Source: a virus (Duplodnaviria; Caudoviricetes). From it: DNA of 54,733 nucleotides. Below, piece after piece: positions 10,363 through 53,706 of the stretch (positions are counted from its first letter, which is position 1; the number at the start of each line of letters is the position of its first letter). A program made the position numbers and the translations under genes. The DNA is taken from positions 1 through 54,733 of IMG/VR virus record IMGVR_UViG_3300032170_000010; one strand, 5' to 3'. The notes under the pieces were generated by a model. That model was not told the origin of the DNA. It saw only the letters and a program-made list of their open reading frames with translations, and did no database searches.

Positions 10363-11001
10363 TCAGCCGCCGAACCTGTAGCCCATTCCTATGGCGACAA
10401 AGACACCAGACCAGTCGGTAGAACAGGACTCAATGCACCTATAGGTTGGATACTTGGCTTTTGCCGAAAGATACTTGGCCTCACCAGAAAAAAACAATCC
10501 ATCTTTGAGCCTATATTCTGCTCCTGCAAGCAACTGAAAACCAGTAGGAGAGTCTTTTTCCTGCATTCCCTTGTAGATGTTGGATGTTATTTTGAGTTCA
10601 GAGGAGAAGCTCCCTACGCCTACCCCAAGATAGGGATGAAGCTGGCCTTCTGTGGGAACCCGATAAACAAGACTTAGAAGAATAGGTGAGGTAGAGGTCT
10701 CAAATGAGTATACCTTTCTATGCTGACGATAGTCTGCTATTCCCTTGAAACTGAAGGTATCGAGCACTAGACTCCAATTCCCAAAGTCATATCCCACTGC
10801 AAAAGCTCCTCCAGTGCCAGATTTTAATACCTTTGGGGTTTCATAGTAGGGCTTAACCTTATCTAGTCCCTCTCCGAGATCCCCGTAGTTTGGCGAGTAG
10901 TAAAATCCCATCCCTTTTATCCAGAGGGATGCCTGAATTACTGAGCATAAACTCAGAAGCAATATTACAGTTAGCACCAGCGATGCGAGAATTTTAAGCA
11001 T
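10363..11001 (-). CDS. OmpW/OmpA-like outer-membrane beta-barrel protein (moron), copy 1
   Basis: Signal peptide, PYLGVGVG, GFQLLAGAEY, GEAKY, C-terminal GMGYRF beta-signal; own promoter and RBS. Confidence 0.8.
   Translation of the reverse strand: MLKILASLVLTVILLLSLCSVIQASLWIKGMGFYYSPNYGDLGEGLDKVKPYYETPKVLKSGTGGAFAVGYDFGNWSLVLDTFSFKGIADYRQHRKVYSFETSTSPILLSLVYRVPTEGQLHPYLGVGVGSFSSELKITSNIYKGMQEKDSPTGFQLLAGAEYRLKDGLFFSGEAKYLSAKAKYPTYRCIESCSTDWSGVFVAIGMGYRFGG
10405..10850. repeat. 446-bp perfect direct repeat, left copy (right copy 53101-53546)
   Basis: Base-by-base identical by eye at an offset of 42,696; similarity decays on both sides. Confidence 0.95.
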
Positions 11002-11029
11002 TTTTTACCTCCTTTTATTATTAGAGGAC

Positions 11030-11057
11030 ACTATAGCATATTTTCAGCATTTGTCAA
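11030..11057 (-). promoter_or_regulatory. Sigma70-type promoter of OMP copy 1
   Basis: TTGACA-16-TATAGT with extended -10 TG. Confidence 0.8.
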
Positions 11058-11070
11058 GGAGAAAATAATT

Positions 11071-12804
11071 ATGAATTGGCCCAGTTATAGACAAGCATTG
11101 TTTCGAGGAGTAAATGAACAAGTAGATGATTTTCTTATTGCTAACGAGGAATCATCGTCTTGTAAAAATTGTCGTTTAGACGAAACTGGCTCTTTGAGGT
11201 CAAGGAATGGTAGAGCAACGAGAAATACTGTTGCTATCATTGGCACCCCGAATGTCCTAGCTCTACATAGATTTCGTATGAGTGGTGGCACTAACAAATT
11301 CTTAGCCTATGCAGGTATGAATATTTGGCTGGGGGATGAAGATTCCCCTTATAATTTTACCTCAATTAAATCTGGGTTAACTAACAATACTAAATGGAGA
11401 TTTCTAACTTTCAAGGATAAGGTCTTTGGTGTAAACGGAAGCAATACCAACTTCAAATACGATGGAACCAATGAACTTGATATGGGAGTAGAGACACCAG
11501 GTAAACCCACTGTTGCACTGGGGAGTGGTGATGGTCTGGATGGTGATTACTACTATAAAATAAGTTATCAGGTCGATAGTTATTCAGAGGGTAATGCGTC
11601 AGTAGCATCTGATTTAATACAACCAGAGACTCAGGCAGTTACCGTTTCTCGTCCTGCTGGCTACGAGGAAGATGTGACTCACTGGATTATCTATCGCACC
11701 AAAGCGAGTGGCTCAATCTATTACAAAGTAGCTACGGTAGCCATAGGCACAGCGACTTATTCAGACACAATAGCTGACGACTCACTGGACACAGGAACAA
11801 TCGCACCAACGGATAATGGAGCGCCAGCAGTAAATGCTGATTTCATTGCTCTTCATCATCGCTATATATTTTTGGTTGATAAAGATACCTCAAGACTATA
11901 TTTTTCTGTGCAGGATTACCCTGAAAAGTTCCCAGCAGCATACTATTTTGATGTAAATCCTAAAGATGGTGAGAATATCAATGGGATTATGCCAGTCCTG
12001 GGAGGTCTTTGGATATTCAAGAAAAATGCAATCTACTTTTTGGGTGGCAACGATGATACCGATTTTGGGATACCTTCTAATAAGTTCAGTAATTATGGTT
12101 GTTATGCTCCAGATACTCTGGTTAATTGCTCGTTGGCTGGCAAGCACGTGATACTTTATCTTCATAAAACTGGAATAAGGGGCTGGGATGGAACAAATTC
12201 TGATTTAATATCAGCTAAAATTCAGCCGACAATTGATACTATACTGGATGATTATATTGATAAAGCGTGTGCTTGTTTGAAGGGTGAGGAATACTGGATT
12301 AGTTTTTGCACCTCTGGAACTTCAAACAATGAAACCTGGATATTTAACTTGAGGACTGGGGACTGGAGAAAGTATGATTATGGTATGAATGCTATGTGTG
12401 TCTGGCCAGACGCTAGACTATTCTCAGGACAAAATAGTGGTTGGGTTTATCAAGAAGATACAGGAACGCAGGATATTACCAGTGATATCTCCTGGGAATA
12501 CTATACCAAGAATTATAGTTTTCCTCACGAGATGGGCAATCTCAATAGATACAGGGAGATGATTTTGTGGACATCTCTAGCTACTGATGATTTATCAATT
12601 CAATTTACCGTAGATAATGATGCCACTAATAAACGATGGACAAAGACACTCTCGTCCATAGGTTCAACCTTAGTTAAAAAAAGATTTTCTTTACCGCAAT
12701 ATCTAGCTGGAGAACTTATGAAAATAAAGTTTTCTTCCAGTGGAAAAAATCAGGCTGAAATTAGACAGCTTGAACTAAGAAGACAGCCAATACTAAGGAG
12801 GTAA
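11071..12804 (+). CDS. Podovirus tail nozzle / tubular protein B-like
   Basis: F.GVN, NCRLDETGSLRSRNG, RLYFS..DYPEKF, DGENING, LWIFKKNAIY, YGCYAP beta-propeller pattern. Confidence 0.75.
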   Translation: MNWPSYRQALFRGVNEQVDDFLIANEESSSCKNCRLDETGSLRSRNGRATRNTVAIIGTPNVLALHRFRMSGGTNKFLAYAGMNIWLGDEDSPYNFTSIKSGLTNNTKWRFLTFKDKVFGVNGSNTNFKYDGTNELDMGVETPGKPTVALGSGDGLDGDYYYKISYQVDSYSEGNASVASDLIQPETQAVTVSRPAGYEEDVTHWIIYRTKASGSIYYKVATVAIGTATYSDTIADDSLDTGTIAPTDNGAPAVNADFIALHHRYIFLVDKDTSRLYFSVQDYPEKFPAAYYFDVNPKDGENINGIMPVLGGLWIFKKNAIYFLGGNDDTDFGIPSNKFSNYGCYAPDTLVNCSLAGKHVILYLHKTGIRGWDGTNSDLISAKIQPTIDTILDDYIDKACACLKGEEYWISFCTSGTSNNETWIFNLRTGDWRKYDYGMNAMCVWPDARLFSGQNSGWVYQEDTGTQDITSDISWEYYTKNYSFPHEMGNLNRYREMILWTSLATDDLSIQFTVDNDATNKRWTKTLSSIGSTLVKKRFSLPQYLAGELMKIKFSSSGKNQAEIRQLELRRQPILRR

Positions 12805-12806
12805 AA

Positions 12807-13700
12807 ATGGCTCTAGTAGATATAATAAAGCAAGCGTTTGAGGAAGCTGGACAGCCACTTCCTCCACCACCAGAACCATCCGGTGGTTTGGTTGACATTA
12901 TAAAAGGCTGGGAAGTTCCGAAAATGATGCCTCCTCCATCCCTTAAAGAACTTGGACCGTATGTTCAAGAACTTATAACACAGCCAGAGGCGACACAACC
13001 TTTCCTTATGCCCGCAGAAGGCGGGGGATATACCGTTAATGTTCCTTCCCCATATCAGCCGTTGACTCCCGAAGAGAGAATTCCAACAGAAATAGAGATG
13101 GGAGAGTTTCCACTTTATACTGCTTACGAAAGCCCTCTTTTAGCACAAACGGGTGAGGAAATTATGAAGATGCTACGAGGGGAAGGAGTGGGAATACCAG
13201 AGGAGGCATTACAATGGCAAAAGGCTATGGGAAGAATCACCGAGGCTGGAAGGGGTGCTCAAGAAGCAGTAACCAAACTGGCTTCAAGACAGGGCAGAAT
13301 GGATTCAGGTTTATATGCTACCCAGCAAATTCAGGTAGTCGAAGAGGTCTTACAACAGCGGGTAGCCACAGCGGAAGCCTTTGCTATTAGAACTAGCGAG
13401 ATGGAACAAGAAGCGAAGAGAGACGCTATTGGTGCCGCTATGGGTTACGTTGGCTTTGAGGCAGGCGAGGCTTTCAAGGTTCAACAAGTAGCCTATCAAA
13501 AATGGTCAGCGGCTTTAGGATTAAAGGTGAGGGCTAGTGACCAAGCCTATGATTGGAAAAAGACTCAGGCTCTCTGGGAACAACAGCTTGAACAAATTAA
13601 AGCTGGTGCAGAGGCAGCAGCCCCAGGATTCTGGGATTACTTTACCAGCATTGTAGGCAACTTTATGGGTGGATTAGCCGAAGGTCTTTTTCCAGATTAA
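12807..13700 (+). CDS. Putative internal virion (ejection) protein
   Basis: LASRQGRMDSG motif, helical, Gly-rich hydrophobic C-terminus; follows the nozzle. Confidence 0.55.
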   Translation: MALVDIIKQAFEEAGQPLPPPPEPSGGLVDIIKGWEVPKMMPPPSLKELGPYVQELITQPEATQPFLMPAEGGGYTVNVPSPYQPLTPEERIPTEIEMGEFPLYTAYESPLLAQTGEEIMKMLRGEGVGIPEEALQWQKAMGRITEAGRGAQEAVTKLASRQGRMDSGLYATQQIQVVEEVLQQRVATAEAFAIRTSEMEQEAKRDAIGAAMGYVGFEAGEAFKVQQVAYQKWSAALGLKVRASDQAYDWKKTQALWEQQLEQIKAGAEAAAPGFWDYFTSIVGNFMGGLAEGLFPD

Positions 13701-13727
13701 CAAATAAAAAATTAAGGAGGTAATTAA

Positions 13728-14924
13728 ATGCCTAATGGAACAAGAAGAGGATGGATGGGAGTAGAGGCTTTAGGAGGATTAGGAGGAGTATTAGGAGGAC
13801 TTGCTGGTCAGAGATGGGGAATGGGTGGACAACCATCAACACAAGGCCAACAACTAGCTAAGGCAGCTAAAAGCGAGGGAACGGAAACTAGAGTAACTAA
13901 ATGGTTTGAAGAAGTTATGTTTCTTTCTCCAGAGGAAAGAATGGCCAGACTCGAAATGGATCCCTCGATTAAGAACTGGCCTCGTGGATATGCCTACGCA
14001 CAGTGGTTAGCTCAGAATATGCCAGTGCAGCAATTAGGGGCAGCGGTTGAGCAGATGAGAACTATACCCGGGGGAGGCCCAGCCTTGGAAAGTCTTACTG
14101 AGATTCTGGGAGGTAAGGGTGCAGGCGTTCTTCCTATGGGAAAAATGACTCCAGAGGCAGGCAGACCATTCTATGAAAAGGCAACACGGCCAATTACCAC
14201 AAGATTTGGGCGTGTGGGAGAACAAGCTGCTGAAGAGTTATATAAGGGATACCCAAGAGAAAAGCCCTTAACAATGGAGGAAATCTGGAAAGGAGAAGCA
14301 GAAGAAGCAAAAGAATTGCCTGGTGCGGCAAGATGGTGGAGAGAAACGAGACCAGAGCGAATGATGACGTTAGTAAGAAATGAGGCTTTTGCATCGGCAA
14401 AAGATGAATTAGGCGAATTCGGTTCACAGTGGATTGAGGCTAGAATAAAGAAGTTAGGAGTTCCAGAGTGGATACAGGGTTTAACTGATGAGGAAAAACA
14501 AGGTTGGGGTTTAGTGGAAGATCCAAAGACTGGGACTTATAGTTTTACAGATGTAGGCGTATCACCTGATATTCAAGCAGCATTCCACGATATGATGGTT
14601 ATGGATGCTCCTACATTAGATGAATTTACTGAAGCTCAGCGTAGAGAGATAAGAGTAGTTGCACAGGGGAAGCGGGCTTTAACTGCAATGGCAGGGCCTG
14701 AAACTGTCCCCGAATGGTTACAGCCCTTTATAGAAAGACCTATGGCTAATATGACTAAAACTGAACAGATGATTTATGCAGTAGCTCTTCTTCATGATAT
14801 GCCCAAGAGACAAGTGCGGATGATAATAGATTTGATTTCTCGTCCAACGCTACAAAAGATAACTGAATTAGCAGAAGAACAAAGAGTTAAGCCGACTGGA
14901 ATTAAATGGCCTTGGTCAAAATAA
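13728..14924 (+). CDS. Putative internal virion (ejection) protein
   Basis: Gly-rich N-terminus LGGLGGVLGGLAG; synteny. Confidence 0.5.
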   Translation: MPNGTRRGWMGVEALGGLGGVLGGLAGQRWGMGGQPSTQGQQLAKAAKSEGTETRVTKWFEEVMFLSPEERMARLEMDPSIKNWPRGYAYAQWLAQNMPVQQLGAAVEQMRTIPGGGPALESLTEILGGKGAGVLPMGKMTPEAGRPFYEKATRPITTRFGRVGEQAAEELYKGYPREKPLTMEEIWKGEAEEAKELPGAARWWRETRPERMMTLVRNEAFASAKDELGEFGSQWIEARIKKLGVPEWIQGLTDEEKQGWGLVEDPKTGTYSFTDVGVSPDIQAAFHDMMVMDAPTLDEFTEAQRREIRVVAQGKRALTAMAGPETVPEWLQPFIERPMANMTKTEQMIYAVALLHDMPKRQVRMIIDLISRPTLQKITELAEEQRVKPTGIKWPWSK

Positions 14925-14939
14925 AAGCAGGAGTTCGAT

Positions 14940-17900
14940 GTGATTGATGAAATCGAGGATATATTAGCTAAGAAAACGGAATATCCCAAGTTTGGTTTAC
15001 CACAGGATTTATTACAGGATATGGATAGAATATTGGGTGGTAAGGAACCTCCAAGAGAAAAGAAACCTAGTTGGTGGGAAAGAATTAAAGCTCATTGGCC
15101 CACACCAGAAGAAACACAACGACTAAGAGAAGAGACGCTTTATCCTGGTCAAAGATTTGAGCATCTAGCTGGAGAGATAGAGCTAGGACATCCCATACCT
15201 CAAGATGATATTGATTATATAGACCGTTATTTAGCTCGACAAAATCTTCGTCCTCCAGGTTTCACCCTAGAACAGTGGCTTCAACAGCCAGAGTCTATAC
15301 GAAGGGGTTATAACTACGCTGTAATGGGAATGATTATTTTTGGTGTGCTATCTCCCATTCTTGCCCATTCTAGTTTTGGGCCAATGGCAAAACGAGCCCT
15401 TCTTAAAGTTTATCGTGGGAAGTTACCCGAAAGAATTCCGTCTCCTAAGCCCCGTATGGTAAAAGAACCCGCCTTGGTAAAGCCTCCCGTAAGAATAACA
15501 GCTCCTACCAAAATTGTTGAGACCGCCATTGAACAATTAAAACAAAGCGTTGCCCAGGTGAAAATTGTTAAGACGGAACCATTTAGAGGAAAACTAGAGG
15601 GGGCTATTTATAAAGCAATAGAACGAGCGGTGCCTGGTATAAAAAAAGCTAGAGTAGAAGCGGGGATTCGAGCCTTGATTGACAGGCATCTTATAGGTGC
15701 TCCTATTGAAGTTAGTCCTCGATTTGCCAAAGCGACAATAGATTCTGTATTTAATGATTTTCCTCGTATGCTTGAGCAGGCTAGAGTTTATGGGGAAATA
15801 TCACCTGCTCTATTTAGAAGAGAAGTGGTTACTCCAGAAGAAGAAATTGTAGAAAGGGAGATGGCGAAGCCGCTTGTTCCATTAGAGGAATATATTGGTC
15901 CTGAAGTAGCACCGAAAGTACCAGCGGAAGCAGTAGAGGGTGAACTTCAAGGAATGTTCAGCGAACTTATAGAAGCTGAACCCGGTAAAAGGATAAGAAC
16001 TGAAACTGGAGAATGGATGGCACAACCATCCACTTATCCTCAATGGATGAGAGACTATAAAATAAGTAAGAAAGATGCTCTTGAAGCCTATAGGACAAAG
16101 AAAGGAATAACGTGGCAGCGAATACAGGATGTGGCAAGAGACAGAGTTGAGTATGGCTATGTATCACCTGCATTAGGTAGAATTCCTCCTTATATGGAAC
16201 AAGAAATAAATATGGGTGGTGGACCAGCTTTAGGAATGGGAATTGAATTAACCAAGAAAGAGTTGTTCACTGAACCCAAAGAAAAGAATCCTCTCGGTAA
16301 AGCTGTAGATAGAGTAACAGGTTGGTTCTCTGTTTATTCCAGAGTAAAAAAGGAAAATCCTGAAGCCTATGTGATGTTCAGGCATTTTAAGGGTGGACAG
16401 GAAGTAGCTTGGATAAATGCTAATCAGGTAAATAGGGGGATATGGGGAAAAATAAGTTTAAAAGATGCTACTGCTATACAGAGATACAGGCAAATTGAGG
16501 AAGTAACACTAGAATCTCTACCAGAAAGACTTAGACCCATAGCTTTAAGATTGGATGCGGAGATAGAGAGTCGGAAAGAAGCACTTATCGCTAGGCGTAA
16601 GATGGAGGTTGGCTGGCCCGAATCTTACATAAATCAATTAAACAGAGAAAGAGAAAAACTTACCAACGAAATTCCCCTCCTTAAATTAAAGAAAGCAATT
16701 GTGAAGAGACAGGATAGAATTGAGGAAATTGATGAATTGGTGGAAGTGCTGCAACATCGTAGATTTTTCCCTGGTATGTATCAACAAACATCCGAGACGC
16801 AACCACAAATAATCAAACTCTTACCAGAGGGAAGGTGGCGAAGTTCTCAGCTAAGAAGTAAATGGAGAAAAGGAAAATTCATTCCTGACATAGACACTGC
16901 TGTTAAATGGGGACTACATCCTGCCGATCCCAGAGCTGCTATGCTTGATTATCTTTACTGGGATGAGCTAGAGAAAAATAAATGGGTACTCTTCCAGGGA
17001 ATAAAAGATGACGCTAACTTAGCTCTTCTGGAAAGAAACGCTCCTGAGTGGTGGAATACAGTTGCTATCAAAGAACTCAAGGGATACAAAGTTAATCCAT
17101 TAATTACTGAGATACTAGAAGAGTTTGCTGCTTCAGGGACAATAAGTCCTATGAACCTACCCAATGCTTATATGAAGCTCGCCAGATATGGAAAGATAGC
17201 TTCCTTTTATAATCCCATAATTATGGGTGGAATCTATGACCCACAGCAAGGTTACTTAGCGGCTGGCATACCTGTATTAAATCCAATTCGCTACACAAAA
17301 GCATTAATAGGCAATTTAAAGCAGGATGAATTTTACAAGCAGTGTGCAGCGGCAGACCTTTATCCCAAACCTGTTGATTTGGGACCCCAAAGAAATATGG
17401 ATGATTTGGTTCTTTCTGCTGCTAAACAGATGGATGAATCTTGTTCTGATTTTACGAGATTCGTTGAAAAAGCGACTGATGGAAAGTGGAATTTTAAAGG
17501 TGGAGAGAATACTAAGAATATGATTAAAGCACTAAGTGGCTTATATAGTGCTGAATGGAATATGACCTGGACACTTGATGCTACTTCTCGCAGAGTTACA
17601 GTTGAAGTGCTTATGGCAAGAGGTTGGAAATTTGAGGATGCAGTTGAGAGAGCTAGATTTTATCACGCAGATTATGGTGATATTCCCAGTGCAACTAGGC
17701 GATTCTTAAATCAGGCTATGTGGACGCCATCTTATCAAATATCTATGGCTAAGGTCTATGGTAATCTTGCTCGTCATCCCATTAAAGAGAAAGGCCCCTT
17801 GACTCGACTTATTGCTTTCTGGCTATTAGCAGGAACTGGAGCAGCTATTCTAGGTTATAGATGGCAAGAAGGCTATAGATTTGTTAAGGAAACAGAGAGA

Positions 17901-18440
17901 GGCGAAGAGGTTATAACTGGTAGTGGCCCGTTATTCTTCTTACATAAATACTTAGCTAGAAATCCTGTGCAGAGTGCATATTATCAGTCTGCCATTCCTA
18001 TTCATATTGTCTGGTCCCTTGCTCGAAATAGAGACTGGAAGGGTGACAGAATTTATGAGGAAACAGATAGTAAAGAAATGCAACTCGCCAAGGGAGCAGG
18101 TTACATTATTCGCACTTACTTTAGACCACTGGAAGCTATGGCTAGAATGACTAATCAGGATGAGGATTTGCTAAATAGACTGTTAGCTATACCTGCTGTT
18201 TCTAAATACACGAGACTACCAAGAAGGGAATATATGAAATACTTACTTGGTGAAGAAACAGCAGAATACCGAAGTTGGGTCAGAAGACATCCTGAAGCAC
18301 CACCATACGAAAGAGAAAAACGAGCAAAGGTAATGAGAAGAGAAATGGATAAAATATTAGCTGGGCCAAAACAGGAAATCTGGCAGAAGATGCCCGTTGA
18401 TATTATTAACTGGGTTCTAGGACGAGTGCATAGTAAATAA
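14940..18440 (+). CDS. Large internal virion/ejection protein (1166 aa)
   Basis: Size, position, A..FHADYG..P motif and late hydrophobic segment typical of large podovirus ejection proteins. Confidence 0.55.
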   Translation: MIDEIEDILAKKTEYPKFGLPQDLLQDMDRILGGKEPPREKKPSWWERIKAHWPTPEETQRLREETLYPGQRFEHLAGEIELGHPIPQDDIDYIDRYLARQNLRPPGFTLEQWLQQPESIRRGYNYAVMGMIIFGVLSPILAHSSFGPMAKRALLKVYRGKLPERIPSPKPRMVKEPALVKPPVRITAPTKIVETAIEQLKQSVAQVKIVKTEPFRGKLEGAIYKAIERAVPGIKKARVEAGIRALIDRHLIGAPIEVSPRFAKATIDSVFNDFPRMLEQARVYGEISPALFRREVVTPEEEIVEREMAKPLVPLEEYIGPEVAPKVPAEAVEGELQGMFSELIEAEPGKRIRTETGEWMAQPSTYPQWMRDYKISKKDALEAYRTKKGITWQRIQDVARDRVEYGYVSPALGRIPPYMEQEINMGGGPALGMGIELTKKELFTEPKEKNPLGKAVDRVTGWFSVYSRVKKENPEAYVMFRHFKGGQEVAWINANQVNRGIWGKISLKDATAIQRYRQIEEVTLESLPERLRPIALRLDAEIESRKEALIARRKMEVGWPESYINQLNREREKLTNEIPLLKLKKAIVKRQDRIEEIDELVEVLQHRRFFPGMYQQTSETQPQIIKLLPEGRWRSSQLRSKWRKGKFIPDIDTAVKWGLHPADPRAAMLDYLYWDELEKNKWVLFQGIKDDANLALLERNAPEWWNTVAIKELKGYKVNPLITEILEEFAASGTISPMNLPNAYMKLARYGKIASFYNPIIMGGIYDPQQGYLAAGIPVLNPIRYTKALIGNLKQDEFYKQCAAADLYPKPVDLGPQRNMDDLVLSAAKQMDESCSDFTRFVEKATDGKWNFKGGENTKNMIKALSGLYSAEWNMTWTLDATSRRVTVEVLMARGWKFEDAVERARFYHADYGDIPSATRRFLNQAMWTPSYQISMAKVYGNLARHPIKEKGPLTRLIAFWLLAGTGAAILGYRWQEGYRFVKETERGEEVITGSGPLFFLHKYLARNPVQSAYYQSAIPIHIVWSLARNRDWKGDRIYEETDSKEMQLAKGAGYIIRTYFRPLEAMARMTNQDEDLLNRLLAIPAVSKYTRLPRREYMKYLLGEETAEYRSWVRRHPEAPPYEREKRAKVMRREMDKILAGPKQEIWQKMPVDIINWVLGRVHSK

Positions 18441-18441
18441 A

Positions 18442-18648
18442 TTACTTTAGTAGGGGAAGAGTAATTTTTAAATCCTTGAACGCTTCCTTGAATTTTCGAT
18501 AATACTGTTGTGCGGCCTCTTGTTCTCTACGCTGTTCAGCTTGTTTAATCAAAGGAACAATGAGAATGGGTTTAAGGAACGATAAGACCAGAACGCTAGC
18601 GATAATACTGAGAACCACTTTAATATAAAGGTCTATACTTAGTGACAT
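18442..18648 (-). CDS. Small single-TM moron protein
   Basis: MSLSIDLYIKVVLSIIASVLVLSFLKP...; AGGAGG RBS and own promoter. Confidence 0.6.
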   Translation of the reverse strand: MSLSIDLYIKVVLSIIASVLVLSFLKPILIVPLIKQAEQRREQEAAQQYYRKFKEAFKDLKITLPLLK

Positions 18649-18671
18649 TTTTTTCCTCCTTTCGGTGAAAG

Positions 18672-18699
18672 TGTATAGCATAATTTCAGAATTTGTCAA
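18672..18699 (-). promoter_or_regulatory. Sigma70-type promoter
   Basis: TTGACA-16-TATACA, same TATGCTATA context as the OMP promoter. Confidence 0.75.
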
Positions 18700-18711
18700 G
18701 GGGTAAATTAA

Positions 18712-18909: not shown

Positions 18910-18912
18910 GGG

Positions 18913-18940
18913 TTGCAATTTGCAAAGTTTAGTATATAAT
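18913..18940 (+). promoter_or_regulatory. Sigma70-type promoter
   Basis: TTGCAA-16-TATAAT. Confidence 0.6.
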
Positions 18941-19067
18941 AATAGAAAGTATCGAGTGAGTAAATCGAAGTCCAAAAAAAGGGTATCTCCGTGCTTCTTT
19001 TACCTCAGAGATTTCTTGGATAGCGATGTAATTCTAGCTTTGGAGCGGTTGAGACGTGAGGGGTAAA

Positions 19068-45498: not shown

Positions 45499-45499
45499 C

Positions 45500-45552
45500 A
45501 AGGAGAGTTTGCTCTCCTTATAATTGTGGAGGGGGTCATTCTTGGCCCCCTC
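45500..45552 (+). terminator. Two hairpins after the major capsid gene (attenuator or mRNA stabiliser)
   Basis: AAGGAGAG-TTTG-CTCTCCTT and GAGGGGGTCA-TTCT-TGGCCCCCTC; no clear U-tract. Confidence 0.45.
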
Positions 45553-45570
45553 TGCGCAGGGGGAAAAAGA

Positions 45571-46047
45571 ATGGCTAAGACAAAACGAGTTTGGTTTCGC
45601 TCAAGACACGCTGCTTCTTGGTACATAGTGCTTGACCCGTCTGAGTATGTGGTAGAAAAAGTTGGAATGACTGAAAAGAGAACATTCCACGAAGGACTAC
45701 GAGTAACATTCCAAAACTATATGTATTCCACTACGGACAAGCAGATAATAGAGATGCTCAGGGCTAAGTTAAGCGAGAAGGGGCCTCGTGGCAGAGTAAT
45801 TGGGCCACGAAAATATCAGTTTGATGAAGTTCCATCTCCGCAAGATGAAGCAAGGAAAGCATTAGCAGGATTACAGGATAAGGTCAAGCGACTAGATGAA
45901 GAAGCTGAAAAAGAAGCCGAGGATTTACAGGTTTACGATTACTGCGATGAGCCTAGTTGTGATTACAGGGTTTCAAAAGATTTAAGTCCTAAGCAGAAAA
46001 AGGACGCTATGCGATTACACAAAGCTATGGCTCATGGCAAAAAATAA
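45571..46047 (+). CDS. Hypothetical virion-associated protein with C-terminal CxxxxC...H...H motif
   Basis: Start at MAKTKRV (upstream GTG lies at the start of a hairpin). Confidence 0.55.
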   Translation: MAKTKRVWFRSRHAASWYIVLDPSEYVVEKVGMTEKRTFHEGLRVTFQNYMYSTTDKQIIEMLRAKLSEKGPRGRVIGPRKYQFDEVPSPQDEARKALAGLQDKVKRLDEEAEKEAEDLQVYDYCDEPSCDYRVSKDLSPKQKKDAMRLHKAMAHGKK

Positions 46048-46075
46048 ATGAAACATAGCAATACAGGAGAAAAAA

Positions 46076-46513
46076 ATGGCTTACACAACTAAAGAAACAA
46101 GTGCTGCTCAGGAACAATGCACCGTCAAGGGTTTACACTGGATTAAGAACATGGTTAAGACTTGGCTTCACTATGCTTTTTGGGCCAAGGACGGTGTAGA
46201 GGAACAAGAAATTACAGATACCTCAGAAACTCAAGTTATTAGCATGGGTGGAGTGGCAACGCTTAACAATGTGGCGAGTTTAACCTGCACACTAGCTGAT
46301 CCAGAGGCAGTAGGAGCTTTGATGGTTATTAGCCAGATAGATGCTGGAACTGCTGGACATACGGTAACTTGTGAAACCGCTAATGCCTTAGATGGAACCC
46401 ACGATGTAGCTACCTTTACTTCTCAGTATGACACTCTAGTTTTGCTGAGTGTAGCAACTGACAGATGGATTATTGTAGAGAATATAGGTGATGTGGGATT
46501 AACAACTGCATAA
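46076..46513 (+). CDS. Capsid decoration-like beta protein
   Basis: TLADP...G....I....TAGHTVT...ATF...D pattern. Confidence 0.55.
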   Translation: MAYTTKETSAAQEQCTVKGLHWIKNMVKTWLHYAFWAKDGVEEQEITDTSETQVISMGGVATLNNVASLTCTLADPEAVGALMVISQIDAGTAGHTVTCETANALDGTHDVATFTSQYDTLVLLSVATDRWIIVENIGDVGLTTA

Positions 46514-46992
46514 TGAAATTACACTTGGGCTGTGGCGGTATCCGTCTTAACGGCTATATAAATGTTGATTGTCGGAAGAGTAGTGCGGTTGATGTTATTG
46601 CTGATGCAAGGAATTTACCATTTAAGGACAACTCGGCGACTCTAATAGAATCTTATCATTTGATTGAACATATACCACGCAGGAATGTAATGGATACATT
46701 GAGAAGCTGGTATCGTCTTTTGAGACCCGCTGGTAAGCTCGTGATTGAATGTCCTGATTTCGACAAAAATTGTGAAGATTATGTTAGAGGAATCAATCAA
46801 AATATGCAACTTCGATACATATATAGTATGGGTAGATGGCCCAAAGATGTTCATTTTTATGGTTACAATTTTGAGAGATTAAAATTGTTTTTGGAAAAAG
46901 CTAATTTTACAAATATCCAAAGACAAATCTCACATGATTATCACACACAACAAGCTGCTTGTCTAAGAGTTGAGTGTCAAAAACATGGTTGA
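46513..46992 (+). CDS. Class I SAM-dependent methyltransferase
   Basis: LHLGCG, GYINVD, LPF, HLIEH, LLRPAG.LVIECPD. Confidence 0.88.
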   Translation: MKLHLGCGGIRLNGYINVDCRKSSAVDVIADARNLPFKDNSATLIESYHLIEHIPRRNVMDTLRSWYRLLRPAGKLVIECPDFDKNCEDYVRGINQNMQLRYIYSMGRWPKDVHFYGYNFERLKLFLEKANFTNIQRQISHDYHTQQAACLRVECQKHG

Positions 46993-47665
46993 AAATTTAG
47001 TGAGTATTCTCATTCCCACTAGGGGAAGAGCGAAACAGTTAAAGAAGCATATAAGGCTCATTAGAAAAAATACTTTCTATGAGCCTTACGAGCTTCTCCT
47101 GATGGTTGACGAGGATGACGAGGCTACTATAAAAGTTTGCAGGGAACTTGAGCTAAGACATTTTATTCATTCTGTCTCAGAAGATGGAAGAGACTTCTTT
47201 GTAGCTAAAATCAATCGAGGATTCAAGGAATCGGAGGCTGAGTATTTTATCTACTTCTCCGATGATGTAAGAGTTGAATCCGGCTGGCTTAAGGCAACTA
47301 TTTCTCACTTTAAGAATGAATTTCCCGATGAGATTGGCTTAGTTGCTTTTGATGATGGATTCTATCACGAAAGATTAGCTCCACACGGACTTGTATCTCG
47401 AAAGTGGATTGACAAATTGCAGTTTGGCGGGTGGCTTCTCTGGCCTGACTATCTTCATTATCACGGCGACCAAGAAATAACTCAAGTAGCCAAGAAAGTG
47501 GGAAGATTCTCCTATTGTGAAAAGGCTAAAGCTATTCATATTAGACCGAAGAATCCTGAAAAAAGGGATTCAATCTGGAAGGAAATGCACGAATATTGCT
47601 GGCCAATAGACACTAATCTTTTCTACGAAAGAAGAAGGGTAGGATTTCCTGGATATGGGGCTTAA
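46985..47665 (+). CDS. GT2-family glycosyltransferase
   Basis: VSILIPTRGR, VDEDD, INRG, FSDD, HYHGD. Confidence 0.85.
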   Translation: MVENLVSILIPTRGRAKQLKKHIRLIRKNTFYEPYELLLMVDEDDEATIKVCRELELRHFIHSVSEDGRDFFVAKINRGFKESEAEYFIYFSDDVRVESGWLKATISHFKNEFPDEIGLVAFDDGFYHERLAPHGLVSRKWIDKLQFGGWLLWPDYLHYHGDQEITQVAKKVGRFSYCEKAKAIHIRPKNPEKRDSIWKEMHEYCWPIDTNLFYERRRVGFPGYGA

Positions 47666-48446
47666 AAAATTAAAAAAACACAGGATATTTATACAACTGC
47701 CTATCTATGATGATATGCCAGGTAGAGCGGTAGCGGCTTTAGCGACTTTGATAACTAGATGCAGGCACATCTTGAGTCCGGGGTTCTGTTTTGCTACCAG
47801 GATTGATAAAGCACGAGTTCAATTGGCTCAGATGTTTCTCAATACTAACTGCGATTTAATGCTCTGTATAGATGCAGACAGCTTATATAGGCCAGGACTC
47901 GTGGATAAATTGATTTCTCATAACAAAGATATAGTGAGTGGTCTCTATTTCTCCAGAAGAGCACCCTGTAAGCCTATTATGTATAAGCAGAAGGAGTTTA
48001 ATACTCGTTTTGCTCCTATAACCGAGTGGGAAGAGGGAAAGCTCATTGAAGTAGATGGCGTGGGTATGGGGTTTTGTCTGATAAAAAGAGAAGTGGTAGA
48101 GAAAATAGGGGCAAAATCCTTTAATTCTATCCTACTTAAAGACCTATTTGATGAGCAACTCCTAGATGTAGAAGACGTCTCTCCTATGGGTGGAGACTTA
48201 GCTTTTTGTCAACAGGCTCGTAGGAATGGGTTCAAGGTTTGGGTGGATACAAGTGTAGAGGTGGGGCATCTAGGTGAGCGAGCTTACGAGAGAGACGACT
48301 TTGAGATGTATAAATTACGTGCTGCATTGAAAGATGTAGATAGGGATAAGTTAAGTGAAACTCTACAAAGGCAGAAAGAGCAACTTTTAGGTTTGAACAA
48401 TAAACAAAAGATTATAAAACCAAAATTAATTATTCCAGGAGGATAG
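47655..48446 (+). CDS. GT-A fold glycosyltransferase
   Basis: IDAD, DIVSGLY, EVDGVGMGFCLIKREV, GGDLAFC, GFKVWVD..V.VGH. Confidence 0.85.
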   Translation: MGLKKLKKHRIFIQLPIYDDMPGRAVAALATLITRCRHILSPGFCFATRIDKARVQLAQMFLNTNCDLMLCIDADSLYRPGLVDKLISHNKDIVSGLYFSRRAPCKPIMYKQKEFNTRFAPITEWEEGKLIEVDGVGMGFCLIKREVVEKIGAKSFNSILLKDLFDEQLLDVEDVSPMGGDLAFCQQARRNGFKVWVDTSVEVGHLGERAYERDDFEMYKLRAALKDVDRDKLSETLQRQKEQLLGLNNKQKIIKPKLIIPGG

Positions 48447-48447
48447 G

Positions 48448-48717
48448 ATGTCAACCATAAAGAGTGGACAAAAAACAGTAACAGCAGCGGCAAGTATAGT
48501 TTATACCACTGATACGCAGCAAATGCTCTGGGTAAACGTAAGGTCTTTAGCGAGCAACGCTGAGATGGCTCTCGGTACCAGTGGAGTTACTTTAGCCAAT
48601 GGTTATTTACTCTTACCAGGAGAGGCTCATAGACTTGGTGCGTGTGATATGGCTCAACTCTATGTTATAGGAACAGCAGGGGACAACCTCTCTTGGGTGG
48701 GTTGTTATACTGAATAA
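48448..48717 (+). CDS. Small structural beta protein
   Basis: GTSGVTLANGYLLLPGE motif. Confidence 0.55.
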   Translation: MSTIKSGQKTVTAAASIVYTTDTQQMLWVNVRSLASNAEMALGTSGVTLANGYLLLPGEAHRLGACDMAQLYVIGTAGDNLSWVGCYTE

Positions 48718-48729
48718 CAGGAGTTAATT

Positions 48730-49467
48730 ATGGGAATGCAATTAGATGAAATGAGGAAGCGACTCAGGTTTATTATAACTGAACCTGCTGCTGATAGATT
48801 TCCTGATAGTGATGATGCCACAAAAGGCTTAGGCTTGGATTCACTTCTCAACGATGGGCTAAAAGCCTACTTTGCTGATACTCGCTGGGCTACTTCGGTT
48901 TGGTATATCAGCGTCACGGGAAGTGATACTTATAGCAATGACAATCGCATATATTCTCTTCCCTCCGATTGTCTTGAGGTAGATAAGGATGATGTTTCCT
49001 TTGATAAGGTAAAGATATTTGAGACTACGAAAAAGGAACTCTGGGCTGAGGATAAGTTTAGCGGAGTAGATGGGGAGTCTGAGGATTCTGACAAGTGGCC
49101 TGAAGGAGTGGGGACACCCAAACATTTCTACTTTGAAAAGGAAGATGTGATAGGGCTTCATCCTACTCCTAACGCAGTAGCCAATGGCAAGACGTTAAAA
49201 TTCAGTGGAGTAGAAGCACCCGATACTTTATCTGCTGATGAATCTGTAGCACCGCTTCCTTATGATTTATGCAAAGGAGCTATTCACTGGGCTGCTAGGG
49301 AAGTTTTTATTAATGATGGGGAAGATGTTAAAGCAACTAACCAGGAAAGTCTTTATAATAAATATGTAGCTAGGGGAAGGGAAAGAAAGAGAACCAGACA
49401 AAGAGAAAAACCCATAGCAATAGCACAGAGTGGTCATTATTATGTTGACTCAGGAGATATTCATTAA
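48730..49467 (+). CDS. Head-tail adaptor / tubular protein A-like
   Basis: LLNDG, YSLPSDCL, GTPKHFY, IGLHPTP, AIHWAA. Confidence 0.75.
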   Translation: MGMQLDEMRKRLRFIITEPAADRFPDSDDATKGLGLDSLLNDGLKAYFADTRWATSVWYISVTGSDTYSNDNRIYSLPSDCLEVDKDDVSFDKVKIFETTKKELWAEDKFSGVDGESEDSDKWPEGVGTPKHFYFEKEDVIGLHPTPNAVANGKTLKFSGVEAPDTLSADESVAPLPYDLCKGAIHWAAREVFINDGEDVKATNQESLYNKYVARGRERKRTRQREKPIAIAQSGHYYVDSGDIH

Positions 49468-49640
49468 TGGCTTTCATAGAAGAATCTGATCCTACAACTA
49501 ATTTTACAGAACAATTAACTTTTCCTTTCTTTCTTTGTAATAATACTTCTATTATGTGTAATAACACGAGGTTTCTTTGCAATGGTCGTCTAGCATATAC
49601 AGAAGAATCTAATCCATCAACTTCGTGGAGTGAGGAATAA
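49467..49640 (+). CDS. 57-aa peptide with CNN repeats
   Basis: MAFIEESDPTTNFTEQLTFPFFLCNNTSIMCNNTRFLCNGRLAYTEESNPSTSWSEE; TAATG coupling at both ends. Confidence 0.65.
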   Translation: MAFIEESDPTTNFTEQLTFPFFLCNNTSIMCNNTRFLCNGRLAYTEESNPSTSWSEE

Positions 49641-50641
49641 TGGCTATAGAACAAGTTAATAGAGCAAATAAAAATATAAATCAAGGTTGGGGTATTTATA
49701 ATGCTTTAGTAACAGCCTTACTTGCTCAACACGATAGCACTGGTGCTCATAAAGCTGCGGCAGATGTAATCCTGAAAGCCCTCTTTGATGCTAATACTAT
49801 TTTGGCAGCGAATAGCGATAATGCTCCGGCAGCTTTGACTATTGCTGAACAAAGACTAATTGGTCGCATAACTGGGGGAAACATTGCTGCTTTAACCGCT
49901 ACACAGATAAGAGCATTGCTTAATGTAGAAAACGGAGCAGCGGCAGACCAAAATGCCTCTGAGGTTTCCATTGCTGACGCTGGAGGAATTATTACTGCTA
50001 CTCAAGTTGAGGCAGCATTACAGGAGATACAGACTGACCTTAACGCTGCTGAGGCAGAAATCGTTAGTGCCAGAGGTTCAAAGAGTTCTGTTGATGCAAG
50101 GTTAGACATTTCTCTCAATGACGATGGAACGCTTAAAGGAAGATATGTCGAATTTAACTTCCCCGCTGGTTGTTGGAATTATCCTACTTCTAATCCTGCA
50201 CCACTTGACAGAGATGTGGGCACTAATGGGGGAATGTTCAGACACCTTTTTGATGATACAACTGAGGAATTTATTCTCTTGGAGCCTGTATTTGAGATAC
50301 CTGATAACTTAGATACTGCTGGCACAGTCTATTTTAGCTTGACTGGCTACGCTAAAGTTGCAGATGGAAATGAAGTTCAGTTTAGAGCATCCCTTTCTGC
50401 ACGGGCTAAGGGCGAAAGTTGGGACAATGCTTATACGACAAAGGATAGTGGAGACTATGTAACAGATGCACAACAAGATGAGCTAGACCAGATTGAGTGG
50501 AGTGAGACTGTAGCTAGCTTAGGCTTGGCTGCCAAGGATTTGCTTCGACTTATGGTCTCTCGCATAGCAATAGCTGACGGAACTCCTGTAAGTGGGGATT
50601 ATTGTTTCCTGAATCTTAAAATAAGAATACCCGTGACATAG
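49640..50641 (+). CDS. Tail fibre/spike-like protein
   Basis: TQVEAALQEI and EIVSARG motifs; C-terminal beta-sandwich FDDTTEE. Confidence 0.65.
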   Translation: MAIEQVNRANKNINQGWGIYNALVTALLAQHDSTGAHKAAADVILKALFDANTILAANSDNAPAALTIAEQRLIGRITGGNIAALTATQIRALLNVENGAAADQNASEVSIADAGGIITATQVEAALQEIQTDLNAAEAEIVSARGSKSSVDARLDISLNDDGTLKGRYVEFNFPAGCWNYPTSNPAPLDRDVGTNGGMFRHLFDDTTEEFILLEPVFEIPDNLDTAGTVYFSLTGYAKVADGNEVQFRASLSARAKGESWDNAYTTKDSGDYVTDAQQDELDQIEWSETVASLGLAAKDLLRLMVSRIAIADGTPVSGDYCFLNLKIRIPVT

Positions 50642-50649
50642 GTGATTAG

Positions 50650-51372
50650 ATGGCATTGGACTTTGACCGTGCTTTAACTCAAACTTTTACGGTTCCGTCT
50701 GGAGGCACCCTCAATGTGAGGGGTAATTTCACCCTTACAGCTTGGGGCTATTTCCATACGATGTCTAATGTTGACCAGTGGGTGACAGCTAACGAATTCT
50801 ATCGGCGGTGGCTAGTGGCAGGGGATAACCGTCAATACATTATGGGTTTGCTTAACCCCGATGCTAACGGTCAACCAGCCGACTGTGTAGCAGTTACATT
50901 CGCTGGTGCTGATGGGATTTATGATGATAGTTGGTACTGGAATTCAGCCTTGTCGATAAACACTCTGTATCATTTCGCCTGGGTTCACAGTGGCACTAAT
51001 TTTCTGATATATGTTAATGCAGACCCGAAGACTCTTGCTAAACGAAACAGTATTAACCCACCCGCTACCTTTAAGGATTCAGCACAGGACACAATCTTTG
51101 CTACCGATATGGACGGCGAGACATTCGATGAGAGGATGTATGATCGTGTTCTCTCTGCTGCCGAAATCCAGACTATCTACCATGCTCGTGGTGCCGATAA
51201 CATCGTAGATAATCTTGTTGCTCGCTGGCTGATGAACGAGAAGCCAGACGGGGGTACTGCAACGGTAGCAAGTTCTGTGATTGACATAAGTGGGAACGGG
51301 AATCACGGGACGCCTGCCAACTCCCCAGTTTATCGGGCGGCACCCGTAAGGTTAGTAAAGCTAATAAAATAA
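50650..51372 (+). CDS. LamG/concanavalin-like domain protein
   Basis: FTLTAW, YHFAWV, YDRVLSAAEI, LVARWLMNE, DISGNGNHGT. Confidence 0.85.
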   Translation: MALDFDRALTQTFTVPSGGTLNVRGNFTLTAWGYFHTMSNVDQWVTANEFYRRWLVAGDNRQYIMGLLNPDANGQPADCVAVTFAGADGIYDDSWYWNSALSINTLYHFAWVHSGTNFLIYVNADPKTLAKRNSINPPATFKDSAQDTIFATDMDGETFDERMYDRVLSAAEIQTIYHARGADNIVDNLVARWLMNEKPDGGTATVASSVIDISGNGNHGTPANSPVYRAAPVRLVKLIK

Positions 51373-51384
51373 GGAAAAATAAAT

Positions 51385-52497
51385 ATGGCTGAAAGATTTT
51401 ATTCGCCTCCAATTCAGGGAACTTGGGAACAGGCTAGAAGTCCGCTAAACGACAGGCTTCGGGCTATTGAGAGGATGTTAAACGATATATCTACTGGAGC
51501 GGGAATACCAGGAAGTCGCATAGCGGTTGAGGCTGTTACCGCAGAGAAAATTGCGGCTGGTGCCGTAACAGCAGCCAAGATGACTATTACTGACCTCATA
51601 GATATTGCTAATAAATTAACCCTTGCTTCAGGCAGAGTCATTATTGACAAAGATGCCTTTGGCACTGACCTTGAAGGTATAATTATCAATGATGAAACCT
51701 ACGATCGGGTAGAGATTGGGGAGCTTACATCGGGTGACTATGGGATGAAGGTTAGGGATTCAAGTGGAAACGTAACTGTGGATATGGGAAAGTTAGCAGC
51801 AGAATCAGATAAGAAAAATCTTGTAGTAAAAGTAAATGCTACAAATCCGACATACCAAATTGATGTAGATGCAGACCATCTGAAACTCGATGATTCTACC
51901 CAGCTTCTTGCGAATATAAATCTTACAATAGACATCACGGCCTCTGGAGCAAACGGTCTTGATACAGGAAGCGAGGCAGCCAATACGTGGTATAGCATCT
52001 GGGTTATACATAATCCTACAACTGACACAGTAGCAGGGCTTCTTTCCACCTCAACTCTCACTCCCACTATGCCTTCAGGCTACACTAGAAAGAGAAGAGT
52101 TGGCTGGGTGAGAAATGATGGTTCTAGTAACTTTCTCAAGTTTCATAAAATGGGTGACTGGTGGTATTTTGCAACTCGTCAAGAGATTATTGACACCTAC
52201 TCTCCCGCTTCTTCTTTTACTGACTTGGATTGCAGCAGTGCCGCTCCGCCTACAGCGGGAATACTTTCGCACTATATCTTTTTGGGCGACGACGCAGAGA
52301 CTTATGCCCGTGTCTGGCTTCGCAGAAATGGTGACAGTGGCGACTGGATAATAGTGGGTGAGACCGAGGCTACAGCTCGCATGGTGCATTGCACTGCCTT
52401 TTGTCTTTGTGACACCAACCAGATAATTGAATATCACTGTGACGCTGACTGCGATAGGATAGTGCTTTGGGTTACAGGTTATTATGACCCAATTTAG
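51385..52497 (+). CDS. Tail fibre protein
   Basis: AVTAEKIAAGAVTAAK, GANGLDTGSEAANTWY, PTMPSGYT..RRVG. Confidence 0.75.
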   Translation: MAERFYSPPIQGTWEQARSPLNDRLRAIERMLNDISTGAGIPGSRIAVEAVTAEKIAAGAVTAAKMTITDLIDIANKLTLASGRVIIDKDAFGTDLEGIIINDETYDRVEIGELTSGDYGMKVRDSSGNVTVDMGKLAAESDKKNLVVKVNATNPTYQIDVDADHLKLDDSTQLLANINLTIDITASGANGLDTGSEAANTWYSIWVIHNPTTDTVAGLLSTSTLTPTMPSGYTRKRRVGWVRNDGSSNFLKFHKMGDWWYFATRQEIIDTYSPASSFTDLDCSSAAPPTAGILSHYIFLGDDAETYARVWLRRNGDSGDWIIVGETEATARMVHCTAFCLCDTNQIIEYHCDADCDRIVLWVTGYYDPI

Positions 52498-52506
52498 GGG
52501 GAGAAG

Positions 52507-52905
52507 ATGAGAAGATTAGCTATAAGGAAGTCCGATAAGGTGATAGTAAGTTTTGGCTACGAGGATATGGCTCGCTTTGGTCCAGACGAATTTGATATTA
52601 TAGATACGGTTCTTGAAGTATTGCCCGATGATATGAGGTTCTGCTTCTACAAGCAGGGCAAGGTGGTAGTGGATCAAGCCCTGAAAGATGAAACCCTCCA
52701 AAAAGAGACCAAGGCAAGGCAGGAAAGAGAGGAGGCAAGGGGACATCTCACTTTAGAGGATTTAGCTGGACTCACCAACGCCCAGATTAACAACTGGGTG
52801 GATAGCAATGTCACAGATTTGGTAGGCGGTAGGCTGGCTATCAAGAAGCTGGCAAAGTGGTGCCGAGCTTTAACTAGAATAGCAATGCTCAGGCAGGATA
52901 ATTAA
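52507..52905 (+). CDS. Tail-fibre-associated protein
   Basis: Directly follows the fibre gene; size typical of fibre chaperones. Confidence 0.45.
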   Translation: MRRLAIRKSDKVIVSFGYEDMARFGPDEFDIIDTVLEVLPDDMRFCFYKQGKVVVDQALKDETLQKETKARQEREEARGHLTLEDLAGLTNAQINNWVDSNVTDLVGGRLAIKKLAKWCRALTRIAMLRQDN

Positions 52906-53025
52906 ATGATTTGGATAGCTTTAGTATTTTGCATAATTGGTGCTGTAATTTGCTTTAGACTTTTATTTGTTGATATAAACAAAGCCTGGGACTTAGCTGA
53001 ATTATTAAATAGGAAGAAGTTTTAG
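52906..53025 (+). CDS. Small single-TM peptide, homolog of 10191-10337
   Basis: MIWIALVFCIIGAVICFRLLFVDINKAWDLAELLNRKKF. Confidence 0.65.
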   Translation: MIWIALVFCIIGAVICFRLLFVDINKAWDLAELLNRKKF

Positions 53026-53037
53026 CTCTTTGAAAAT
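53024..53037 (+). promoter_or_regulatory. boxA-like antitermination site
   Basis: AGCTCTTTGAAAAT abutting the OMP stop codon, as at 10349-10362. Confidence 0.5.
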
Positions 53038-53706
53038 CTAGAGTTCATACTCTACTTTGGGAGAATTAAATTTATATCCGATACCTATGCTGAAGAAGAT
53101 ACCAGACCAGTCGGTAGAACAGGACTCAATGCACCTATAGGTTGGATACTTGGCTTTTGCCGAAAGATACTTGGCCTCACCAGAAAAAAACAATCCATCT
53201 TTGAGCCTATATTCTGCTCCTGCAAGCAACTGAAAACCAGTAGGAGAGTCTTTTTCCTGCATTCCCTTGTAGATGTTGGATGTTATTTTGAGTTCAGAGG
53301 AGAAGCTCCCTACGCCTACCCCAAGATAGGGATGAAGCTGGCCTTCTGTGGGAACCCGATAAACAAGACTTAGAAGAATAGGTGAGGTAGAGGTCTCAAA
53401 TGAGTATACCTTTCTATGCTGACGATAGTCTGCTATTCCCTTGAAACTGAAGGTATCGAGCACTAGACTCCAATTCCCAAAGTCATATCCCACTGCAAAA
53501 GCTCCTCCAGTGCCAGATTTTAATACCTTTGGGGTTTCATAGTAGGACTTAGCCTTATCCAGACCCTCTCCGAGATCCCCATAGTCTGGCGAGTAGTGAA
53601 ATCCCGTCCCTTTTAGCCAGAAGGATGCCAGAACTGGTGAGGCTAAAAGAGATATTGCTACCGCGATTACCAGGATTGAGAGCATTACTTTGAATTTTTT
53701 ACTCAC
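53038..53706 (-). CDS. OmpW/OmpA-like outer-membrane beta-barrel protein (moron), copy 2
   Basis: Core identical to copy 1; different signal peptide and C-terminal extension. Confidence 0.8.
   Translation of the reverse strand: MSKKFKVMLSILVIAVAISLLASPVLASFWLKGTGFHYSPDYGDLGEGLDKAKSYYETPKVLKSGTGGAFAVGYDFGNWSLVLDTFSFKGIADYRQHRKVYSFETSTSPILLSLVYRVPTEGQLHPYLGVGVGSFSSELKITSNIYKGMQEKDSPTGFQLLAGAEYRLKDGLFFSGEAKYLSAKAKYPTYRCIESCSTDWSGIFFSIGIGYKFNSPKVEYEL
53101..53546. repeat. 446-bp perfect direct repeat, right copy
   Basis: Identical to 10405-10850. Confidence 0.95.

Follow-up and report, generated by a model that had tools for sequence, protein, structure and literature searches.

We analyzed a viral contig of 54,733 nucleotides (the window), which makes up the entire IMG/VR record IMGVR_UViG_3300032170_000010, listed there as linear, and which carries two outer-membrane protein (OMP) genes that share a perfect direct repeat. 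The contig is probably a misjoin, made at the repeat during assembly, between the genomes of two different phages of a single marine-sediment sample. The repeat divides the window into part A, which is a fragment (11.6 kb) of the genome of a long-tailed phage, and part B, one podovirus-like circle. Whichever reading of the contig holds, a recent recombination patch between A and B, lying within a homologous moron, is real.

The 446-bp repeat and the two genomes beside it

Base-by-base comparison of the window showed that the 446 bp at positions 10405-10850 (GC 0.446) are an exact copy of those at 53101-53546, with an offset of 42,696, and Pfam assignments placed both copies inside OMP genes, as the first-pass annotation of this DNA had claimed. 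This was the sole direct-repeat family of at least 40 nt in the window, and no inverted repeats were found in a repeat scan of the 54.7 kb. Within that length, an exact 446-nt match is impossible to obtain by chance. We rejected a terminal repeat of B as the origin of the repeat, because it sits within a coding gene that A also carries.

The two sides of the window were found to be different genomes by composition and gene content. Part A (1-10404 and 53547-54733) has a GC content of about 0.49 (0.494 in its left part), and part B (10851-53100) has one of 0.41. GC content at third codon positions (GC3) was sharply split, with values of 0.47-0.71 in nine A genes vs 0.30-0.43 in 11 B genes, and blastp of A against B open reading frames (ORFs; all those of at least 40 amino acids, 1e-3) gave 0 matches. 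The in-frame GC3 of the repeat itself (0.405) was B-like. These results bear out the earlier view of two distinct phage genomes. The same annotation had called the two phages unrelated, which holds for the rest of the ORFs, where no other likeness was detected, but a whole cassette of a small transmembrane (TM) gene plus the OMP gene is common to both, and a cassette with an S8 peptidase likewise links B to the A family. In L001, one of four IMG/VR loci (L001-L004) that are close relatives of A, positions 8262-9706 encode a subtilase S8 and a 154-aa ORF that are 69% and 47% identical, respectively, to the products of B 19750-20724 and 20725-21162. The subtilase and the 154-aa ORF of L001 lie between tail ORFs and an 85-aa TM ORF, a slot that holds a C1 peptidase in the window and in L004, and the arrangement looks like a swappable peptidase cassette common to the A and B lineages.

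Closed on the repeat, B forms a circle of 42,696 bp in which the rightward genes make up one block and the leftward genes another. The circle holds genes for the large terminase subunit (TerL), portal, major capsid protein (MCP), adaptor, fibre and recombination functions as well as a tRNA, which supports the proposal that the interval is a complete B genome in one exact circle. Its size fits that of the records nearest to it by TerL (41.7-50.6 kb) and of a 44,584-nt contig of the B family. The companion proposal, that removal of the interval rejoins A tail genes to their peptidase and presumed holin, was confirmed by synteny with L004. In this locus some 5 kb of unrelated tail ORFs, ending with one at 9481-11544, separate the conserved genes from a peptidase C1 gene at 11564 and an 85-aa TM ORF, and the tail-to-peptidase stretch contains neither an OMP gene nor B.

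Hybrid OMP genes in a shared moron cassette

OMP copy 1 (212 aa; 10363-11001, minus strand) combines an A-type C-terminal strand, the repeat, and a B-type N-terminus with signal peptide, and it is a hybrid, like OMP copy 2 (222 aa; 53038-53706, minus strand), which combines a B-type C-terminal strand and tail, the repeat, and an A-type N-terminus. Both are full length and 86% identical as proteins (179/209). They belong to the OMP_b-brl (PF13505) small outer-membrane beta-barrels, with scores of 53.7 bits for copy 1 (Opacity, 34.6 bits) and 55.1 bits for copy 2, both above the Pfam cut-off of 28.7 bits; the two also exceed the cut-off for Opacity. Modelled with 37 homologues, copy 1 formed a small beta-barrel with a pLDDT of 89, to which Foldseek assigned a probability of 1.00 with OmpA-TM, NspA, OprG, OmpW and Ail. 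The Ail/Lom family was not among the Pfam families reported for the two OMPs at E <= 0.01, so that the likeness to Ail is one of fold only.

The hybrid nature of both copies, which the first-pass annotation had predicted, was borne out by homologues encoded elsewhere. P0002 (215 aa), encoded on a separate 1,735-nt JGI/IMG contig, matches copy 2 over residues 1-184, then shows the change A185V, and its last 30 residues are those of copy 1. Since it matches copy 2 in its N-terminal part and copy 1 at its C-terminal end, P0002 is the product of an unmixed A-A OMP gene. The A185V change corresponds to 10457 G>A, and the same base difference was present in a contig of one of the sequencing runs described below (run X2). 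In P0003 and P0004 (81-84% identical) a B-type N-terminus occurs together with a B-type C-terminal strand, so that the two B-type ends belong together in relatives, and the C-tail of OMP copy 2 resembles both proteins.

Homology between A and B extends beyond the repeat. To the right of the identical core, toward the OMP N-terminus, identity was 0.88 and then 0.80 in two 50-nt windows (about 85% across some 100 nt) before it reached background, and to the left it fell immediately to 0.42 or less. The last OMP beta-strand is conserved between the copies at the protein level, with no conservation at the DNA level. Beside the OMP genes, and convergent with copies 1 and 2, respectively, lie an A version (48 aa; 10191-10337, plus strand) and a B version (39 aa; 52906-53025, plus strand) of a small TM ORF, each with a hydrophobic N-terminal segment; the two share 71% nucleotide identity over 97 nt and 23 of about 39 residues. 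Because this wider homology takes in the small TM ORFs, the last OMP strand and the flank on the OMP N-terminal side, the shared unit is the whole moron cassette and not the repeat alone. It is a cassette of about 0.9 kb, consisting of the small TM gene and the convergent OMP gene, in which an identical core of 446 bp lies within homology whose flanks diverge by 15-40%. A promoter-like site 5' of OMP copy 1 (11030-11057, minus strand; TTGACA, 16 nt, TATAGT, with TG) agrees with the consensus at 11 of 12 positions, as a pattern match only. The small TM ORF was not found beside the OMP gene in the loci L005-L024, and we therefore rejected the idea that it generally accompanies the OMP family.

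Perfect identity over 446 bp inside diverged flanks, together with the differing codon composition of the two phages, speaks for a homologous exchange in the very recent past, and so for a shared host, and implies active gene flow between A and B. The patch is sharply bounded at 10405 and fades out gradually after 10850, and the exchange could plausibly have proceeded via the RecT-like annealing protein and the RusA-like resolvase of B. De Paepe et al. 2014 (PMC3945230) describe traces of homologous recombination at the borders of exchanged phage fragments, along with mosaic formation by Rad52-like recombinases that tolerates divergence. The window resembles these mosaics in that diverged homology surrounds a stretch of perfect identity.

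The lom gene of phage lambda is a moron, that is, a phage-borne gene for a small OMP beta-barrel located in the tail region. The OMP genes of the window are similar in that a small beta-barrel gene with its own promoter-like site lies among tail genes. They differ from lom in that they run antisense to the late operon and have a small TM gene as partner, in their Pfam families (OMP_b-brl/Opacity/OmpW, not Ail/Lom), and in that more distant members of their family (50-64% identity) occur in bacterial polysaccharide loci.

The OMP family was almost confined to sediment and subsurface metagenomes. In L010, L015 and L023, whose OMP matches were 57-69% identical, the OMP gene lies near homologues of B genes. 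In five further loci (L011, L014, L018, L022 and L024; OMP about 53-72% identical) the sampled neighbouring ORFs were polysaccharide genes, namely Wzz in L014 and L022, glycosyltransferases in L011 and L014, an asparagine synthase in L011 and a DegT aminotransferase in L018, with L024 grouped with L022 by its matching ORF layout. Given these relatives in bacterial polysaccharide loci and near B-gene homologues, the OMP gene looks host-derived and mobile among these phages. L005, which has the closest B-type OMP, was rejected as a relative of B, as outside the OMP it had one weak match to B (49% over 35 aa). Scans of viral, metagenome and genome contigs with the single OMP proteins gave no match; an OMP profile run against genome contigs recovered one relative, at an identity of 27% from which no host can be named, and one OMP homologue (59% identity) is labelled Ca. 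Aerophobetes by its source.

Three further features of the family were observed. Two OMP copies stand in tandem in L012, L016 and L017. The OMP alignment (A1) has a strongly conserved segment, Y-R-C-I-E-S-C-S-T-D-W-S-G, near the C-terminus (about column 210; residues ~187-199 of the window OMPs), and of its two cysteines one is invariant in 33 of 33 sequences and the other nearly so. The allele encoded by the repeat is alone in the family in having no counterpart of the two residues that follow 'DYRQHRKV'.

Assembly graph and alternative readings of the contig

The sequencing runs that we compared with the window come from one marine-sediment metagenome study. Run X1, the likely source, contained 0.99 of the sampled words of the window, run X2 contained 0.38 and run X3 next to none. 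All run evidence consists of Logan contigs assembled at k=31; the X1 assembly is separate from that of the record and was built from the same likely source data, so that it is not independent of those data. In X1, an A contig ends at 10434, 30 nt into the repeat, the repeat forms a 446-nt contig of its own with a depth of 39.1, and a 19,552-nt B contig begins at 10821. The adjacent A contig had a depth of 22.5 and the B contig one of 19.1. The repeat thus has two neighbours on each side and a depth close to the sum of A and B, and this separate assembly branches at both repeat ends. Both joins lie where the exact repeat common to the two genomes begins or ends. In X2, one contig, which carries the 10457 G>A difference, runs unbroken over 9792-10595, from A-left across the left repeat edge; contigs of this run cover A-left and not 11340-20000, a gap that is no proof of the absence of B and that we did not use as evidence.

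The assembly graph may be pictured as one shared node with two entries and two exits, A being a linear path that meets the loop formed by B. Both phages carry the small TM gene and the convergent OMP gene with its promoter-like site, with the central 446 bp identical. A walk through A-left, the repeat, B, the repeat and A-right would cross each edge once and give the observed contig, and A-left/repeat/A-right and circular B as separate molecules would yield the identical graph. Words of 31 nt cannot pair the left with the right neighbours of the repeat. Since two free molecules or one nested molecule give the same graph, the contig by itself would be no evidence of linkage. In a misjoin, the assembler would have chosen this walk without spanning evidence, and B would exist free.

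Chimeric contigs of this kind have precedents. Repeats are described as a source of chimeric phage contigs in one study (PMC10104058), and another describes chimeric contigs as common in short-read viromes (PMC4247695). The window agrees with repeat-induced chimeras in having an exact shared repeat longer than the assembler word size, joins at the repeat ends and about double depth in the repeat. It differs from them in that one partner is a whole circle, mimicking a clean integration with target duplication.

The first-pass annotation had considered a true cointegrate and an assembler join equally possible, and the evidence now favours the join. Under the alternative, a Campbell-type cointegrate, circular B would have recombined with A inside the 446-bp OMP segment by means of host RecA or of the B RecT-like protein and RusA, and the main molecule in the sample would run from A-left through the repeat, B and the second repeat to A-right. 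It could be, for instance, an intermediate of replication or a nested prophage that cannot be packaged. We consider this unlikely, though it has several points in its favour. The insert is exactly one B circle, with the shared segment repeated directly on either side, as it would be after a single crossover, and the Bet gene ascribed earlier to B was confirmed as a RecT/Bet-like annealing protein (30407-31411; phrog_10056, 3e-50), which is accompanied by a RusA-like resolvase (23044-23409; phrog_34, 9.7e-11). Phage Rad52-like recombinases are efficient on short and diverged homologies according to PMC3945230; that work, however, deals with segments exchanged among phages and prophage remnants and not with a stable phage-in-phage cointegrate. 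Beyond the repeat, no A-B-spanning molecule was present among the contigs compared, the A-A form exists independently (P0002), and the composition of the two parts speaks of no shared history. A 446-bp direct repeat near active RecT/RusA should moreover resolve quickly, and a molecule of about 88 kb would, by headful limits, be too large for a capsid built for 43-46 kb. In its fullest form, in which the contig is correct and an integrase-less podovirus-like B persists in the sediment inside the long-tailed A as a phage-in-phage cointegrate of about 88 kb, with the moron as a portable attachment site, this alternative is rather improbable.

Depth bears on both readings. All six of the six listed A contigs of X1 were deeper (20.7-24.5, length-weighted mean 21.8) than B (19.1), and A was found in six listed pieces, whereas the start of B formed one contig of 19,552 nt; eight of 29 aligned X1 contigs were only 95-99% alike. 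The difference in depth between A and B is slight and could be due to GC bias and variant strains. The misjoin is favoured because the A-A form exists, because A is deeper and fragmented by variants, because no integrase or resolvase of the site-specific kind was found, because the direct repeat beside RecT/RusA and the capsid limit argue against a lasting nested molecule, and because the A relative L004 runs from tail to peptidase with no OMP gene or B between them.

Several observations weigh against the misjoin. The A/B depth ratio in X1 is about 1.14, so that the two depths lie within about 14% of each other with the repeat near their sum, a pattern expected of a cointegrate accompanied by a minor strain of free A, and the variant contigs of X1 could represent such a strain. 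For independent phages the closeness of the depths would be a coincidence, yet similar depth also favours assembler joins of this type. The B-B junction was seen nowhere, either as an exact B-B OMP form among the collected OMP homologues or in the viral-contig scans for B relatives with context. The evidence on the junctions consists of contigs. Finally, two sizes lie near that of A plus B (about 46 + 43 kb): the CheckV completeness of the record (63%) implies a full length of about 87 kb, and a B-like protein is encoded on a contig of 88,009 nt. This contig could represent a dimer, another nested pair or a larger phage; of the 65 homologues listed for the A tube protein none lies on it, which argues against it as a relative of A plus B.

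Two other explanations fared worse. That the window is one natural phage of at least 55 kb with a duplicated OMP gene, in which the A segment (11.6 kb) is a foreign tail module, would agree with a continuous contig in which all ORFs are intact and both OMPs are full length. Relatives of A, however, have their own head genes directly 5' of the A-left genes, as in L003 with its 906-aa protease-MCP fusion, and in L004 the genes after A-right and those before A-left are not neighbours of each other, so that the window holds a fragment of a second complete phage type. Along with the sharp GC3 split and the A-A OMP form found elsewhere, this layout nearly refutes a single genome, and we regard it as very improbable. 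Site-specific integration of B at an attB in the A OMP gene, with the repeat as attL/attR, is also suggested by direct repeats flanking an insert. Six-frame searches with PF00589 and PF00239 for tyrosine and serine recombinases gave 0 matches, with positive controls, and no integrase or resolvase of this kind was found among the 38 B ORFs scanned against PHROGs, in line with the earlier remark that no integrase is visible. The identity, furthermore, spans 446 bp of a complete promoter-bearing gene in both partners and not a short core. Integration of the attP x attB type was therefore rejected, and we give it almost no credence.

If the contig is an assembly product, the record mixes two phages in a single entry of a public virus collection, and its length, completeness, host and taxonomy calls would all be wrong; the case then shows that a shared moron together with a circular genome can mimic a clean integration. 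If the nesting were true, it would stand as a rare case of a phage integrating into a second phage by way of homology. Either way, the window offers direct evidence that distant phages of an uncultured sediment host have recombined very recently, and the RecT/RusA-type machinery of B could carry this out.

Gene content of phages A and B

The late genes of B continue to the right of the first repeat (11071-21162, plus strand) with a 577-aa hub-like protein (11071-12804), proteins of 297, 398 and 1166 aa, a DNA methyltransferase (19056-19739), the subtilase S8 (19750-20724; Pfam Peptidase_S8, 124.9 bits) and a 145-aa ORF, as assigned by PHROGs and Pfam. Leftward early genes occupy 21142-37000 on the minus strand and comprise, according to PHROGs, Pfam and ARAGORN, besides the RusA-like gene and the RecT/Bet-like single-strand annealing protein, two HNH genes (23908-24567 and 34447-35058), a DNA methyltransferase (24922-26298), a weak DnaB-like match (26295-27140), a metallophosphoesterase (28862-29779) and a tRNA-Ala (36633-36707). 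This tRNA, with anticodon TGC, is on the minus strand at the end of the early region. Head and tail genes (37738-52905, plus strand; PHROGs) include TerL (39806-41350), portal (41538-43259), MCP (44332-45498), an SU10-type adaptor (48730-49467) and a fibre-like ORF (51385-52497). One methyltransferase-like and two glycosyltransferase-like ORFs (46513-48446) lie inside this operon, between MCP and adaptor.

Phage CVT22 and the Pf-WMP3 group are podoviruses. B resembles podoviruses of the SU10 and P22 types in its SU10_adaptor match (Pfam, 52.7 bits), its TerL, which is 22-26% identical to those of CVT22 and the Pf-WMP3 group, and its hub-like 577-aa protein, and the adaptor and the distant TerL likeness lend some support to the earlier naming of B as a podovirus. 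The label 'nozzle' given earlier to 11071-12804 is weakly supported. In tblastn the 577-aa protein matched two phage records (41.4 and 42.8 kb) at 20-25% identity, the target being annotated as a 'phage stabilization protein' or as hypothetical. Closer homologues of this protein were P0043 (85% identical), on the 88,009-nt contig, and P0049 (64%), on the 44,584-nt contig.

The left part of A (1-10185, plus strand), in which phrog_290 was matched, contains an adaptor-like ORF with a weak match (72-779), a tail tube protein (2262-3692) and a variable tail/fibre region (~3900-10185) with a 1237-aa ORF (6472-10185). The tube protein matches Pfam Phage_tube_2 (42.9 bits), which gives some support to the naming of A as a siphovirus and, like the protease-MCP fusion of its relative L003, recalls long-tailed phages with the HK97 fold. 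The right part of A encodes a papain-like peptidase C1 (53796-54536, plus strand; Pfam Peptidase_C1, 76.5 bits; phrog_16701), 76% identical in amino acids to L004 11564-12277, and a small TM protein with a hydrophobic N-terminus (54555-54733, plus strand), which is cut by the contig end, is 80% and 73% identical to the 85-aa ORFs of L004 and L001, respectively, and is possibly a holin.

The tube protein of A is 88-89% identical in amino acids to those of L001-L004, and nucleotide identity with these loci is 80-82% up to about position 3915, with none beyond until the peptidase. Past this point L001-L004 carry different large ORFs; the region is a hypervariable tail/receptor-binding one. Homologues of the tube protein lie on contigs of 44,153, 44,362, 45,999 and 46,128 nt, which suggests an A genome of about 44-46 kb, 11.6 kb of which is in the window.

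A and B are both very distant from any isolate, and in this they differ from the SU10/P22 podoviruses and HK97-fold phages named above. Megablast of A (1-10400) and of B (10851-33000) against 50,697 phage records gave nothing, and neither did tblastn of the A tube protein against phage records. Scans of viral contigs with the B MCP, the 577-aa protein and TerL as single proteins, or with a profile (A3), gave nothing, as did PDB sequence searches with the 577- and 1166-aa proteins of B and the 1237-aa protein of A.

Two ORFs 5' of the 1237-aa ORF, at 5119-5517 and 5403-5822, overlap by 115 nt in different frames. No family match was obtained in PHROGs or Pfam for these two or for the 1237-aa ORF; the pair could encode frameshifted tail chaperones, in which case the 1237-aa protein would be the tape measure. 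At the left end of the window (1-430), both forms of a C>T difference at position 43 are present in run X1, which also has a loose end at 426, and strain variation of A may explain why the contig stops there.

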